The translations under genes were made by a program, and so were the position numbers. Shown piece by piece: positions 50,669 through 56,075 of a stretch of 64,000 nt of DNA. Location: contig CP067995.1 in assembly GCA_045159875.1 (NCBI GenBank), positions 2,656,001 through 2,720,000 of the forward strand. The letters are read 5' to 3'. Source of the DNA: a cyanobacterium endosymbiont of Rhopalodia gibba (lineage in GTDB: Bacteria > Cyanobacteriota > Cyanobacteriia > Cyanobacteriales > Microcystaceae). Every line of letters begins with the position of its first letter. The first letter of the stretch is position 1. The notes beneath the pieces were generated by a model. That model had not been told where the DNA came from, did no database searches, and saw only the letters and a list, made by a program, of their open reading frames with translations.

Positions 50669-51224
50669 TTTTTTAAACTTTGCTTATTTAGTAAAGGTCT
50701 AGACTACCACAATATATTCTACATTTCTCTATGTCCCCCACTCATTACGGCTGTCGAAGATAGAAGAAGGCAGAATTAAAAATTGATACTTAATTGTGGC
50801 CATTTTTCTACATTTTTAGCCATGAACAACTCTACTTTAATAGTTCTTAACATTTTGTTTCATAGGTTGCATTTATTTTTTGCTAATTTAGGTAATCTAT
50901 CCTGATAAATATATTTTCTTGAAAAAGGCTAGACTGACTTAATAAGGTGTAAACCTTACAAAAGTTAACAAAGCAATGTAACCTTATTAAGGAACAAAAA
51001 GTGTAAATACTGACTCTCAACCCATAACTTTTCAATTTGTTAAGACATTACCTCGAATGGTCGTCGGTTCTAAATCTAAATACCAAATACCATAGGCGAA
51101 AGCCATGAATAAAACAGAAAACCATAATCTAATTCAATAAGATTTCCTCAGTTACTCTTATAAAATCAGAAAATATTTCATATAACCTTACAATTACCCT
51201 GAAACTGCTACTGGACTACACATT

Positions 51225-52181
51225 ATGAAAATTTCCACAACTTCTCCCGATCCTGTTCGTGCCTATCTAAGAGAAATCGGTCGTGTTCCTTTACTGACTC
51301 ATGAGGAAGAAATTCTTTATGCTAAGCGAGTACAGCGATTGGTTAGTCTAGAGAACATACAAGAATCTTTAACTGAAGAACTGGGACAAGAACCCACCAC
51401 AGCTCAGTGGGCGAAAACGGCTAGAATCACTCAGAAGGAACTTCGCTCAGTTATTGCGGCTGGAGAAGCAGCTAAGCGTAAAATGGTTGAGGCTAATCTT
51501 CGCTTAGTCGTATCAGTGGCTAAAAAATACCTTAAGCGCAATTTAGATCTTCTAGACTTGATTCAAGAAGGAACCATTGGGATGCAACGTGGAGTAGAGA
51601 AATTTGATCCCACTAAAGGGTATCGTTTTTCAACCTATGCTTATTGGTGGATTCGTCAAGCTATTACCCGTGCGATCGCTGAAAAAAGTCGTACCATTCG
51701 TTTACCGATTCACATCACCGAAAAACTCAATAAAATTAAGAAAGCACAACGGCAACTTGCCCAGGAAAAAGGCCGTGCCGCAACCATTCAAGAACTAGCT
51801 GAAGAACTCGAGTTAACTTCCAAACAGGTTCGGGAATACCTGGAACGTGCTCGTCAACCCCTCTCTTTAGATCTGCGGGTGGGAGATAACCAAGACACCG
51901 AATTAGGAGATTTATTAGAGGATACCGGACCTTCTCCTGAAGATTATGCAACCTATTCCTCCTTGCAGTTGGATCTCGATAAACTAATGGAAGATCTCAC
52001 ACCACAACAAAAGGAAGTATTAGCTTTAAGATTTGGCCTTGCTGATGGCAAACCTCTGACATTGGCTAAAATTGGCACTATCCTCAATATTAGTCGTGAA
52101 CGAGTTAGACAAATTGAACGAGAAGCCTTAGCAAAACTCCGAAAACTTAAGGCTAATATTAGAGAATACTTGGCTAGCTAA
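51225..52181 (+). CDS. sigD: Group 2 RNA polymerase sigma factor, SigD type
   Basis: [39 protein letters not shown] and [12 protein letters not shown] are typical of cyanobacterial SigD. Confidence 0.85.
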
Positions 52182-52349
52182 GTATTCTCCAAGGTTAAGA
52201 GGTTAGAGAATACAGAACAACAGTTCGGTTTTACTGACCTCAAGATAACAAGTAAACTTGTTAAAGTAAAACATGAAGGTTATCGATACCATCCCATTAG
52301 TTATGGTTGATAACCCCCTGATTTAGGTAGAATCTATAGGAGAGCAGTA

Positions 52350-52688
52350 GTGACTAATAACTTTAAATATTCTCGGCGTTTCTCTGATAATGAGGAAGAA
52401 AATGGAGAGAGTTTGTGGGGATATATTCAATCTTTGAGTCCAGAAACTATTGCCCGATTGTCAAAGCCAGACTCTTCTGAAGTATTCCAATTTATGGAAC
52501 AGAATATTATTGGTTTGTTAGGAAATCTTTCATCCGAACACTTTGATATTACCGTGAATACCAGTCGAGAAGATTTGGGACGTTTATTAGCTTCTGCTAT
52601 GATGAGTGGTTATTTTTTACGAAATGTAGAACAACGAATGGGGTTTGAAAAATCTTTGCGATCAATAAATAAAACAACGAAACTGTGA
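52350..52688 (+). CDS. DUF760 family protein
   Basis: LWGYIQSLSPETIARLSKP...SREDLGRLLASAMMSGYFLR. Confidence 0.85.
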   Translation: MTNNFKYSRRFSDNEEENGESLWGYIQSLSPETIARLSKPDSSEVFQFMEQNIIGLLGNLSSEHFDITVNTSREDLGRLLASAMMSGYFLRNVEQRMGFEKSLRSINKTTKL

Positions 52689-52792
52689 GCGATCAAGTTG
52701 CTTAACCGTTCCTTGGCAATAAATCAATAGGAGAAGTTCTATGGGAAAAATCTAATTGATTAAATCGTTGCTATCTTTGCTTTTAAGAAATT

Positions 52793-53447
52793 ATGACTAA
52801 TGAATTAGGAGTTGATTTCCTTTTAGCCTAAGATAATTGCTATTGTCTTGGTATCAATACGAGAGTCGAGGTTTACATTGACGAAACGTTCAGAGTCTCT
52901 ATATTGTATGGGTATCGGAGGCTATGCTACAACAGACTCGGAGGAAAATAAGCATCCTTTACTATTAACAATAGTTACAATCGTTTCCAATTATTGAGAC
53001 TTCAAACTAAGCTAACTTACAAACTGTTCTCAAAGTTTGGGCAAGATTAGGATGTTATGTAGACACTCGCAATCTTCATAGGCTGTAGAGGGCTATCATA
53101 ACAAAAAAATCTTGGAGGTTGATTGAAAACTCCAAGATTTTCTTAAATTATCAGAAATTGAATAAACTACTATTGAAGGAATTCTCAGTTCAGCCTCTAG
53201 AGCAACCTGTTTTTAGCATTAATAGAAACTTTAAGCAAGTATTACCAAAGATCAACTGCTTTGCGTGATTCTCCTAAAAAAGCGATACGTTACTCTGTAC
53301 TGTAACAAGTGTCAGACAGTTTACTTGATCAAAAAATCCTAAGAAATTTAATCAAGGATAGACTTGGGGGCGATTCTTTGTCCTTGAACTCATCCAAAAT
53401 GTTTGCTATGTCCCTGGTGATTACAAAGAACTAAAAATCAACTTTCC
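52793..53447 (+). pseudogene. mutY: Decayed N-terminal A/G-specific adenine glycosylase domain of mutY
   Basis: LLSWY, WVSEAMLQQT (52909-52938), VLKVWARLGCYVDTRNLH, TTIEGILSSA and DLGAILCP*THPKCLLCPW (53361-53417), with many stops and frameshifts. Confidence 0.85.
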
Positions 53448-53885
53448 ATGTGTGAGAACTCTAATCCTTTACCCCACCAAAAAATAGGCGTTGCTGTCAT
53501 CTATAATGAGGATGGACAAATTTTAATTGATCGTCGTCTTCAAAAAGGATTACTTGGTGGTTTGTGGGAATTTCCAGGGGGAAAATTTGAACCCAATGAA
53601 ACTGTTGAAGATTGTATTAAACGGGAGATTTTAGAAGAAATTGATATTAAGATAGGAATAGAAGAACATCTTATTACATTGGATCATGCTTATACTAATT
53701 TTAAAGTTACTTTAATTGTTCACCGCTGTCGTTATTTAACAGGAGAACCTAAACCCATCAGATGTGAAAAAATTTGTTGGGTGACTTTAGATGAAATGAG
53801 TAATTTCTCTTTTCCAAAAGCTAATACTAAAATTATTAAATTATTGCAAAATCAGCAGCAAACAGAAAGAATTAGTATAGCTTGA
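53448..53885 (+). CDS. mutT: NUDIX hydrolase (MutT-like); the surviving C-terminal domain of the cyanobacterial MutY-NUDIX protein
   Basis: GLWEFPGGK and Nudix box GKFEPNETVEDCIKREILEE, HAYTNF, FPKAN. Open ORF directly continuing the mutY relic. Confidence 0.75.
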   Translation: MCENSNPLPHQKIGVAVIYNEDGQILIDRRLQKGLLGGLWEFPGGKFEPNETVEDCIKREILEEIDIKIGIEEHLITLDHAYTNFKVTLIVHRCRYLTGEPKPIRCEKICWVTLDEMSNFSFPKANTKIIKLLQNQQQTERISIA

Positions 53886-54249
53886 GTAAGCAATTTGTTG
53901 GTTTAGCCTAACTCTTCAGAGTTTAAGTTCATTCTTTGCAAAAGTCTGGCGCAACTGACACTCTAAAAGCTTAATTACAAACGCATCATTGGCAGTACCG
54001 TCAGGAGCAAGTAAATTTTTATCGGAGTTAGAGTCAGAACGAGTACCCAAGAAATCTAAAGATAAATTTGGCATACAAAACACTAGAAGCTGAAAATATA
54101 AACTATACTTGAGCCAACTCCAGAAAATCGACAATAAATAATAACTTTTACTAAAATTAGCATAGCATAGAATTATCTCTCACACAATCTTCGTTGCTAT
54201 TGAAAGACTTAATGCTGTTCTTCTTCATGAAGAATTTTTAAATTTAAAT

Positions 54250-55446
54250 TTATTTTACAGACATAATTTGATCGCCTTTGGCTACTTCTTGGAAAGCTTG
54301 AACTACTGCTTGTCTAGCCCAGCGATCAGTTTCTAAAATTTCTTCTAAAGTCGGTGTTAAAGTATTTTGATTCGTAAAGCGACCACAAACAATCTCAATT
54401 AATTTGGGAATATCAAGAAAGGTAATTTTTTTTTCCAAAAAGAAAGCTACTGCTTGCTCGTTAGCTGCATTCAATACTGCTGGCATTACCCCCCCTGCTC
54501 TTCCGGCGGCATAGGCCAACTGTATACAGGGATATTTTTGATGATCCGGTTCCCAGAAGGTTAAACTACCGGCCTTAACTAAATCAAGTTGTTTCCAATC
54601 AGTATAAATTCGTTCAGGCCAGGATAAACTATACAATAAGGGGAGACACATATTAGGCCATCCTAACTGAGCTAACACTGAGGTATCTTGTAATTCAACT
54701 AAGGAATGAATAATACTTTGTGGGTGAATCACGATGTCGATGTTTTCGTAATCTAACCCAAACAAATAATGAGCTTCAATGACTTCTAACCCTTTATTCA
54801 TCAGGGTTGCTGAGTCTACCGTGATTTTACGTCCCATTGACCAATTTGGATGTTTTATGGCATCGTCAACGGTGACAAGGTGTAATTGTTCTACCGGCCA
54901 GTTTAGAAAAGCTCCCCCAGAAGCCGTTAAAGTAATGCGGCGCAATCCTTCGGGAGGAACCCCTTGTAAACATTGGAAAATAGCAGAATGTTCTGAGTCT
55001 GCAGGAAGTAATTTAACCCCATGTTTTTCTACTAAAGGAAGTACTACTGGTCCCCCCGCAATTAACGTCTCTTTGTTAGCTAAGGCGATATCTTTCCCCG
55101 CTTCAATGGCTGCTATTGTGGGCAACAAACCTGCACAGCCTACGATTCCAGTGACGACACTTTCTGAGTCTCCGTAACGGGCTACCTCCGTAACCCCGAC
55201 TTCTCCAGCAAGCAGGATAGGAGAATAGTCGAGAGAAGCAATAGTTTCTTTGAGGATCTCTAATTTACTTTCGTTACAAATAGCGACAATTTCTGGTCGA
55301 AATTTCCTAATTTGCTGCGCTAACAGCTGGCCATTATTGTTTGCAGCTAACCCCACAACTTGAAATTGTTCAGGGTATTCGCTAACAATATTCAGGGTTT
55401 GCGTACCAATAGAACCAGTGGAACCAAGGATGGAGATTTTCTTCAC
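54250..55446 (-). CDS. dxr: 1-deoxy-D-xylulose 5-phosphate reductoisomerase
   Basis: [51 protein letters not shown]. Confidence 0.97.
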
Positions 55447-55552
55447 GATGCCTAAGAATTAACGAAAATGTCGGGAGAAGTCCCTACCCCAAAATACCAT
55501 GAAGAATCCTCATATTTTGAGTAGTGATGAATTTTTGACCTAGAGTTGTGCA

Positions 55553-56075
55553 TTAACGACAGTCTAAACTATTTCGTGCACTTACTCCAGTAGAGAGGGT
55601 TAACTCCATCAGCTATCTCATCACACATCAAGGAAACTGAATAGCTATCAATCACCAAATCGGTCAAACCAACCCCTGTAATAATCGCACCATACATAAC
55701 AGAGCGGGTGCGACTAGTAATCGTATCAACTCAAATGGCATTGGTTTAAGTCAGCAAAACCCCAATTTACGTGCTCAAGAAGTTTATCAGATTTATTCTT
55801 TGTAAATTCGCTTTGAGCGTCACTCCTTGAATTAAAATCTCATCAAAATAGATTTGACGCTTCAAAATCGGTCTGCCGCATATTGCCCGCCGCAAACACG
55901 CCTCTTCTAAAATATTTATCGAAGAAGTCTTGACCCTACAATTCGGAAAACATATAGTTTTATTTTGTCTCTGGCTAAAGCTAGATAAGCATCTAATAGC
56001 ACCAATAAATTAGTTAGTGACAACAGCCTGACTTCCCCTGATATTAGGCGACAGCAAACTCTAAACTTGTTTCAT
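55553..56075 (-). pseudogene. Decayed secreted/lumenal pentapeptide-repeat protein
   Basis: Fragments GVFAAGNMRQTDFEASNL, FAD, AIITGVGLTDLVIDSYSVSLMC...ADGVNP...SARNSLDCR* resemble lumenal pentapeptide proteins ending in C...GVNPxTGxxTRxSLGC. Confidence 0.72.

Follow-up and report, generated by a model that had tools for sequence, protein, structure and literature searches.

A decayed mutY gene and its intact Nudix half in the cyanobacterial endosymbiont of Rhopalodia gibba

What becomes of a two-domain repair gene when one of its halves is destroyed and the other stays open? This question is raised by a locus in a 64,000-nucleotide stretch of DNA (the window; G+C 33%) from the cyanobacterial endosymbiont of Rhopalodia gibba, i.e. 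positions 2,656,001 to 2,720,000 of contig CP067995.1 in a genome of 3.06 Mb and two contigs (assembly GCA_045159875.1; G000 in our labelling), where a clean open reading frame (ORF) for a Nudix hydrolase follows directly upon the remains of a MutY adenine glycosylase. Based on comparisons with related genomes, tests of selection, profile searches and a predicted structure, we consider it probable that a fused mutY lost its glycosylase half to decay and that its Nudix half lives on as a MutT-type gene. The history starts from a fused mutY with an N-terminal adenine glycosylase and a C-terminal Nudix domain with a complete MutT-type box. The glycosylase half was knocked out in the common ancestor of a group of reduced-genome congeners and decayed near-neutrally into a relic of 655 base pairs (bp), in conjunction with purifying selection on the Nudix half, which would now be read as a gene of 145 amino acids (aa) from a methionine of the former linker, the product presumably clearing 8-oxo-(d)GTP from the nucleotide pool. 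The elements concerned are:

52793..53447, + strand: pseudogene remnant of the glycosylase part of mutY (HhH-GPD domain, Fe-S loop, linker), with the old start ATG at 52793
53448..53885, + strand: intact stand-alone gene of a MutT-type Nudix hydrolase, 145 aa, by alignment the former C-terminal domain of a fused MutY-Nudix protein
53580..53648, + strand: Nudix box GKFEPNETVEDCIKREILEEIDI, residues 45-67 (pattern GX5EX7REUXEEXGU, with D for the last G)
53691..53699, + strand: Y-T-N loop, counterpart of the 'FSH' lesion-reading loop of MutY (Y-T-H in fused relatives)

One inactivation and an asymmetric decay

Throughout the 655-bp stretch 52793-53447 no ORF exceeds 49 aa. Three-frame translation yields VWVSEAMLQQT and LGCYVDTRNLH in one frame, while the end of the relic, in the frame of the Nudix ORF, reads IDLGAILCP, THPKCLLCPW and LQRTKNQLS, each parted from the next by a stop, and then MCEN; the motifs are thus spread over two frames with stops between them. 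All the MutY motifs quoted in an earlier note on this DNA reappear in this translation, each in its place. In the alignment, the relic ATG at 52793 falls in the region where the intact gene of the congener starts. Further, the N-terminal 210 aa of a congener MutY match G000:C1:2708825-2709361 (window 52825-53361) with E 7.9e-25 and 35% identity across 10 stops, and the NCBIfam mutY profile TIGR01084 matches with E 1.7e-23 and 9 stops within the match, short of its cut-off (83.7 bits vs 286.5). As judged from these alignments, the similarity to MutY is far above chance. In the DNA alignment to the intact gene of the congener G002 there are 11 reference-frame stops and 8 indel events, of which 7 shift the frame, and the Asp of the DGNV motif has become Asn (INRNF vs LDGNV in intact congeners). 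The congener motif aligns with vDGNV of Geobacillus stearothermophilus MutY, i.e. with the catalytic D144 to which the title of PDB entry 4ypr refers. With no open frame through the HhH-GPD domain, and both the catalytic Asp and the loop His gone, the locus no longer qualifies as a MutY, and with 10-11 stops and 7 frameshifting indels the glycosylase half is destroyed, as had been claimed. The sole match of an Rfam scan, mir-492 at 53082-53158 within the relic (E 0.046; 21.9 bits vs a gathering threshold of 76), is one that we take to be due to chance. A TIGR01084 profile search of the window genome found no second mutY; its one other match is a sub-threshold 239-aa frame that we read as endonuclease III.

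An orthologue of the Nudix ORF is present in 31 of the 31 related genomes. G002 (5.2 Mb) and G007 (4.8 Mb), the full-size congeners closest to the window genome, each have one ORF (375 and 372 aa, respectively) of which this orthologue makes up the C-terminal third, in agreement with the earlier statement that many cyanobacterial MutY proteins end in a Nudix domain. The fused G007 protein clears two cut-offs, that of TIGR01084 (335.1 vs 286.5) and that of the MutT model TIGR00586 (137.9 vs 97.9), and the fused congener protein matches G. stearothermophilus MutY with 260 bits over 340 residues. The Nudix part of the window is 78-80% identical to that of G002 and 71% to that of G007, in a shared neighbourhood. 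In the DNA alignment, relic and ORF are colinear with the fused gene from start codon through stop codon, the relic passing through Fe-S loop and linker (..CLLCPW..QRTKNQLS) straight into the Met of the ORF with no spacer. This colinearity excludes adjacent separate genes as the ancestral state. At least 120 longer homologues combine PF00730, PF00293 and PF14815, and on the strength of these alignments we take the ancestral gene at this locus to be a fused MutY-Nudix gene. Separate mutY and mutT genes in relatives, which the earlier note had named as evidence against itself, are not what the nearest relatives display, since these are fused.

Five congeners have reduced genomes, namely the window genome (G000) and G001, G003, G006 and G004 (these four 2.5-3.1 Mb). 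Each of the five relics carries 6-7 frameshifts and 7-13 stops, and each Nudix ORF is open (137-144 aa in the other four congeners). Disabling stops are shared at reference codon 3 in all five genomes and at codons 18, 49, 113 and 157 in four of the five, and in the tree of the Nudix domain the five form one clade (Shimodaira-Hasegawa-like approximate likelihood ratio test, SH-aLRT, 88) with the fused G002 as sister (85). The shared stops imply that the glycosylase died once, in the common ancestor, and that decay has proceeded separately in each lineage since.

The two halves have diverged at different rates. Nucleotide p-distances among the four closest reduced genomes are 0.088-0.108 in the Nudix part and 0.186-0.247 in the relic, i.e. 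2.2-fold lower in Nudix, and pairwise ratios of nonsynonymous to synonymous rates (dN/dS, omega) among all five are 0.28-0.40 and 0.32-0.82, respectively. In a maximum-likelihood codon model, with the null kappa picked on a grid and with stop and gapped codons masked, omega is 0.23 for Nudix (twice the log-likelihood difference, 2dlnL, 55.98 vs omega=1; p 7.3e-14) and 0.70 for the relic, and the tree length per codon is 1.33 and 3.0. Purifying selection acts on the Nudix half in each of the five reduced genomes, and the relic evolves at about the synonymous, neutral rate. When four reduced genomes are compared in pairs, their mean identity rises abruptly from 0.65-0.76 to 0.87-0.96 across 53428-53448, which places the onset of constraint about 20 nucleotides (nt) upstream of ATG 53448; before that, identity in these four stays at 0.40-0.81, with no conserved island, such as a retained promoter, within the relic.

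Gene fission by pseudogenisation, the core of the earlier note, thus holds, given the shared stops, the colinear relic and a Nudix part kept by selection. Its comparison of dN/dS by domain came out as it had anticipated (0.23 vs 0.70, with Nudix not near 1), and the disruption of the Nudix part that was looked for in sister lineages was found in none, the ORF being open in all five genomes. Where it had selection keep an 8-oxo-dGTPase, the selection on a MutT-type Nudix half (omega 0.23) is borne out, and the 8-oxo-dGTPase activity is one that we infer. That interpretation is accordingly largely supported, and in this last respect partly so.

Family, start and substrate of the surviving gene

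The ORF at 53448-53885 encodes 145 aa free of stops and frameshifts, confirming what had been read from it, and shows 0 indels and 0 stops in the 136 codons aligned to G002. Pfam recognises NUDIX_4 (4.5e-31; 107.4 bits vs 35) and NUDIX (9.6e-18; 64.9 vs 21.1), and with 124.5 bits vs 97.9 the ORF lies above the curated NCBIfam MutT equivalog cut-off (TIGR00586), by which it is classed, as a sequence assignment, as a MutT-type Nudix hydrolase. All specified positions of its Nudix box fit the motif GX5EX7REUXEEXGU, as given in the parts consulted of PMC5389931 and PMC11784022, save the last G. With an alignment of 42 sequences as input, AlphaFold2 gave a model with a mean predicted local distance difference test score (pLDDT) of 92.1 and a predicted template modelling score (pTM) of 0.85. 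Foldseek returned at least 500 PDB matches to this model at E<=0.001, the top ones being small Nudix nucleoside-triphosphate hydrolases with template modelling scores (TM) of 0.8-0.88 on target; E. coli MutT with 8-oxo-dGMP has TM 0.84 on target (31% identity), and for the C-terminal domain of MutY the TM is 0.77 on query. Similarly, the best PDB matches by sequence are 3ees (BdRppH; 1.8e-19), 3hhj (8.1e-16) and E. coli MutT (3.9e-11), the MutY C-terminal domain ranking lower (1.5e-8). Family membership, an invariant catalytic motif and the predicted fold together make a MutT-type nucleoside-triphosphate pyrophosphohydrolase that clears 8-oxo-(d)GTP the most likely identity of the product. E. 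coli MutT (PDB 1mut, 3a6t) resembles it as a single-domain Nudix fold of about 130 aa with a complete box; the ORF differs in its descent from a MutY C-terminal domain, in its MutY-like loop (YTN, and YTH in relatives) and in failing the E. coli-type MutT model PRK10776. Besides the loop exchange His84Asn, the window protein differs from the consensus of the family by Arg instead of Glu at 105, Lys instead of Glu at 108, Cys instead of Arg at 110 and Ser instead of Pro at 121; residues 105, 108 and 110 belong to a short stretch well conserved in fused and stand-alone forms alike.

In the window genome there are four Nudix-family matches, of which the window ORF is the strongest, and fpg is intact (311.6 bits, above cut-off, in a 285-aa frame). 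The genome would hence keep two of the three arms of 8-oxoguanine (8-oxoG) defence, MutM/Fpg and, as predicted from sequence and model, a MutT-type enzyme, with MutY dropped. As neutral DNA, the relic also records the mutation spectrum, in a small sample without a MutY-bearing control: 182 singleton changes in four reduced genomes comprise C>T 68, C>A 25, C>G 7, T>C 48, T>A 16 and T>G 18. Per site, G:C>T:A is the commonest transversion (0.127 vs 0.036-0.050 for the others), well under the transitions. A:T>C:G changes are the hallmark of MutT loss and are not elevated (18 of 182). The earlier suggestion that loss of MutY would raise G:C>T:A and feed AT drift finds no support here, with C>T at 68 vs C>A at 25 and no MutY-bearing control.

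The open frame begins at 53421, and no canonical start in it comes before ATG 53448, the use of which is inferred from this position together with the sharp conservation boundary. For comparison across the family we took the best 120 homologues per length class, i.e. 120 stand-alone proteins and, after dropping 8 long ones of <330 aa, 112 fused ones; as these are related by descent, conservation frequencies are not independent counts. Of the 112 fused proteins, 90% have a Met at the corresponding position, as do 16 of 25 fused orthologous loci, and translation of fused genes might also be initiated internally at this linker Met. Pairing of the Shine-Dalgarno (SD) type before the linker Met is absent in the stand-alone genes and falls within the top tenth of in-gene windows in 1 of 26 fused genes, which leaves an embedded ribosome-binding site without sequence support. 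Cyanobacteria often do without SD sequences, and internal initiation may occur nonetheless.

Concerning expression, RNA libraries containing the whole stretch comprise 4 runs from one sample, each with a single contig of about 8 kb over 51000-55600, and the longest contigs in those runs measure 72-156 kb. Contigs of up to 137-156 kb in the same runs suggest DNA carry-over. In addition, all four assemblies break at 51627-51667, inside a sigma-70 gene (51225-52181), with a 35-nt piece of higher depth and a loose end, probably a stretch common to paralogous sigma-factor genes. In Synechocystis, transcripts of the stand-alone orthologue sll1045 rise in a glycogen-deficient mutant according to the portion consulted of a preprint (10.64898/2026.05.22.726976), so that at least one free-living species does transcribe a stand-alone orthologue. 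One supplement file of PMC11131595, on diurnal transcription in a diatom endosymbiont, holds no mutT, mutY or Nudix entries.

Several observations weigh against the proposed history. First, the relic omega of 0.70 lies below 1 (2dlnL 6.86, p 0.009), probably an effect of the masking of stops and gaps, and omega between full-size genomes is 0.13-0.16, lower than the 0.23 of the reduced-genome Nudix part, meaning that selection has relaxed in the reduced genomes. Second, no SD-like motif precedes ATG 53448, promoter-like sites around the locus number 11 vs 8.1 +/- 3.0 in shuffles, and no terminators were found there (0). The RNA-library contigs of about 8 kb cover convergent genes, both strands and intergenic DNA, and therefore may be carried-over DNA; they attest the presence of the locus, neither transcription nor a start site. 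Third, the ORF has D for the final G of its Nudix box, as do 19% of the fused and 19% of the stand-alone homologues at this position (66), the ORF scores below PRK10776, the narrower E. coli-type MutT model (85.2 vs 148), and its top structural neighbours include the RNA pyrophosphohydrolase BdRppH and CTP/dCTP-preferring enzymes.

The last of these points bear on the alternative that survives best, namely that the ORF is functional with another specificity, either as an RNA 5'-pyrophosphohydrolase like BdRppH or as a CTP/dCTP/5-methyl-dCTP pyrophosphohydrolase like NudG and MutT2. By both sequence and fold, BdRppH (3ees 1.8e-19; Foldseek 4.6e-14), together with an uncharacterised NUDIX hydrolase, is the closest solved relative; Mycobacterium smegmatis MutT2 and a putative CTP pyrophosphohydrolase rank beside E. 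coli MutT, PRK10776 is missed, and a literature search gave no biochemical study of any cyanobacterial orthologue. We nevertheless regard another specificity as unlikely, at about one chance among several, because the TIGR00586 cut-off is cleared while the NudG model (61.4 vs 156) and, likewise, the RppH model score far lower, because descent from a domain that reads 8-oxoG in MutY and the YTH loop in four of the five reduced genomes favour an 8-oxoguanine ligand, and because the neutral DNA shows no A:T>C:G excess.

That the ORF is a non-functional leftover awaiting its first disabling mutation is far less credible. The genome is pseudogene-rich according to the portions consulted of the literature on the group, the RNA libraries are uninformative on transcription and an SD-like motif is missing, all of which would suit a leftover. 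Selection tests contradict it: in five genomes the 136 codons hold 0 stops and indels, compared with the frameshifts and stops of every relic, omega is 0.23 with p 7e-14, divergence is 2.2-fold below that of the relic, and the catalytic motif is invariant.

The lesion-reading loop

Twelve positions in and next to the Nudix box, W40, E41, F42, P43, G44, G45, K46, E51, R59, E60, E63 and E64, are 100% conserved in the 112 fused and 120 stand-alone homologues. A handful of others approach invariance in the fused form alone:

Leu 36: fused 1.00, stand-alone 0.66
Ala 81: fused 0.93, stand-alone 0.47
His 84: fused 0.99, stand-alone 0.72
Phe 85: fused 0.99, stand-alone 0.82
Pro 121: fused 0.99, stand-alone 0.58
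Lys 124: fused 0.98, stand-alone 0.62

In G. stearothermophilus MutY, the residues opposite positions 82-84 (Y-T/S-H) form the F-S-H loop, the His of which is described in the consulted part of PMC10993402 as the detector of 8-oxoG:A pairs. [S/T]-H is present in all 26 fused loci checked. The window loop reads YTN, with Asn for His in this genome alone within its clade, YTH being kept in four of the five reduced genomes. The His is also gone in the stand-alone L012 (Asp), L020 (Lys) and the clade L036-38 (Gln), and the Ser/Thr of the loop is changed in the stand-alone L007, L013 and L036-38. Genome G023 encodes a 421-aa MutY (L032, G023:C16) with YTH and without Nudix box as well as a separate Nudix ORF (L053, G023:C99; a 169-aa open frame) with an intact box and YDT instead of YTH, so that the two roles appear to be split between two genes.

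This pattern, which recurs in separate lineages, would fit a fused domain that serves both lesion reading and nucleotide hydrolysis and, after the split, only hydrolysis. Canonical MutY (G. stearothermophilus, E. coli, human MUTYH) has the two-domain layout of the ancestral protein, with FSH aligned to YTH; its C-terminal domain lacks the Nudix box (..lwefpsce.. / ..qmvgeq.. in the alignment), whereas the cyanobacterial domain has the full box. Tentatively, and with rather less than even confidence, we extend this to the idea that cyanobacterial MutY may be a bifunctional MutY-MutT, in which one domain would read 8-oxoG in DNA by its YTH loop and hydrolyse 8-oxo-dGTP by its invariant Nudix box, the glycosylase being repeatedly shed, the hydrolase restarted at the linker Met and the freed loop left to drift. 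Residues found in place of the His in drifted loops are Asn, Asp, Lys, Gln or Thr.

The homologous domain of canonical MutY is non-catalytic and reads 8-oxoG in DNA, as stated in the part consulted of PMC10993402, and a domain kept merely as a non-catalytic 8-oxoguanine- or DNA-binding module for another repair enzyme could be derived from it. We hold this to be highly improbable, as the metal-binding and catalytic residues of the Nudix box are invariant in the stand-alone forms, and the DNA-reading His is the very residue that is relaxed, being Asn in the window ORF.

Recurrence across the cyanobacteria and its meaning

Of 401 genomes sampled across the phylum, 175 have an orthologue at E<=1e-25, and the following counts rest on the 150 matches that were listed. 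Of these, 47 are fused (open frames of 358-505 aa) and 103 stand-alone (133-212 aa), where open-frame length is a proxy for the state that was verified at 42 loci with a whole MutY as tblastn query. The 24 listed matches that come from other orders of the class are fused without exception, and all 103 stand-alone ones belong to the window's own order, alongside 23 fused ones. Both states occur among the listed matches within genera g1, g4, g25 and g61, genus g69 being set aside as it rests on a contig-edge match. A domain tree of 26 fused and 15 stand-alone loci, plus one contig-edge row left unlabelled and with the paralogue L032 excluded, yields at least 6 state changes, of which well-supported branches alone force 2. 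That mutY and mutT were always two adjacent genes, the relic being a dead neighbour, is the least credible account of all: the 103 stand-alone cases among the 150 listed would accord with it, but it is contradicted by a relic colinear with the single ORF of G002 and G007 and running spacerless into the Met, by the fused state of the nearest full-size relative G002 and of all 24 listed matches from other orders, and by the need of canonical MutY for a C-terminal domain of its own, a second one of which the genome lacks.

The routes by which the glycosylase half was lost differ. G005 and several others are stand-alone with no glycosylase relic left, and the relic is gone from most other genomes with a stand-alone cyanobacterial MutT. 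In the free-living strain G409 (L042) of genus g61, the glycosylase core was removed by an in-frame deletion as compared with its congener G246 (L041), where the gene is intact at 360 aa: ...AQTGRNL is directly joined to LNLQFQIPM..., giving 172 aa made up of 26 N-terminal MutY residues, linker and Nudix domain. Slow decay, finally, is the route of the window clade. As the same loss is seen repeatedly in free-living cyanobacteria, the split is a property of the gene and not of symbiosis. Separate HhH-GPD genes with 32-36% identity to the N-terminal half of MutY occur at G027:C338, G021:C28, G023:C102 and G015:C2 (open frames of 242-252 aa in G027, G021 and G023, and 381 aa in G015); these are probably another glycosylase family and not the lost half.

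The surroundings of the locus are as follows:

52350..52688, + strand: DUF760 gene, upstream neighbour (PF05542, 7.4e-33), synteny kept
54250..55446, - strand: dxr, convergent downstream neighbour (1-deoxy-D-xylulose 5-phosphate (DXP) reductoisomerase domains, 6.1e-46)

The DUF760 gene lies immediately 5' of the mutY/mutT locus in the window, in G005, in G246 (L041) and in G409 (L042), in families f1 and f15.

The gene itself is already known, being annotated as MutT in sister genomes and included in a published orthologue table. In public annotation, the short forms of diatom endosymbionts, Crocosphaera, Aphanothece and others go by the PGAP name '8-oxo-dGTP diphosphatase MutT', and the long ones are called 'A/G-specific adenine glycosylase'. 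In the rows consulted of Table S2 of PMC12903740, one mutT row gives 352 and 369 aa for two free-living strains and 137-181 aa for six diatom endosymbionts, absence in UCYN-A, and 136 aa for Synechocystis sll1045; those rows carry no remark on the length difference, a relic or a fusion, and 'mutY' does not occur in the supplement files consulted. The nearest known counterpart is the fused cyanobacterial 'A/G-specific adenine glycosylase' of G002 and G007 (HhH-GPD, NUDIX and NUDIX_4), a direct orthologue in the same neighbourhood, from which the window differs by a pseudogene for a glycosylase half, a separate Nudix half and the lost loop His. The stand-alone MutT of the Synechocystis sll1045 type belongs to the same orthologous group and to the length class of 133-212 aa. 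Since the window relic is still readable, the origin of the short gene is directly visible, unlike in most stand-alone genomes. MutY domains are described as lacking a Nudix box in the consulted part of PMC5389931, where cyanobacteria are not mentioned, and our literature search found no MutY with an intact Nudix box and no MutY-MutT fusion. New with respect to the searchable literature are thus the readable relic, an ancestral cyanobacterial state in which MutY was fused and had its box complete, the recurrent shedding of the glycosylase and the release of the loop.

In conclusion, the 8-oxoguanine defence of this endosymbiont would be annotated as Fpg plus a MutT-type hydrolase, with the short gene a salvaged domain and not a classical mutT. 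The relic displays a route by which stand-alone cyanobacterial 'MutT' genes arose. Fused and split states may explain the patchy, partly complementary presence of mutT and mutY in the tables consulted of PMC5101192, and in the one orthologue table of PMC12903740, as far as its consulted rows go, fused genes are filed under a single name. A MutY with a full catalytic Nudix box contrasts with the Nudix literature, as represented by the consulted part of PMC5389931. If the fused protein has both activities, it would offer a testable case of a two-function domain whose roles were sorted by selection after the split, and if the bifunctional origin is true, the gene family would be a living model both of how MutY arose from a glycosylase and a MutT and of how domains shed moonlighting constraints.

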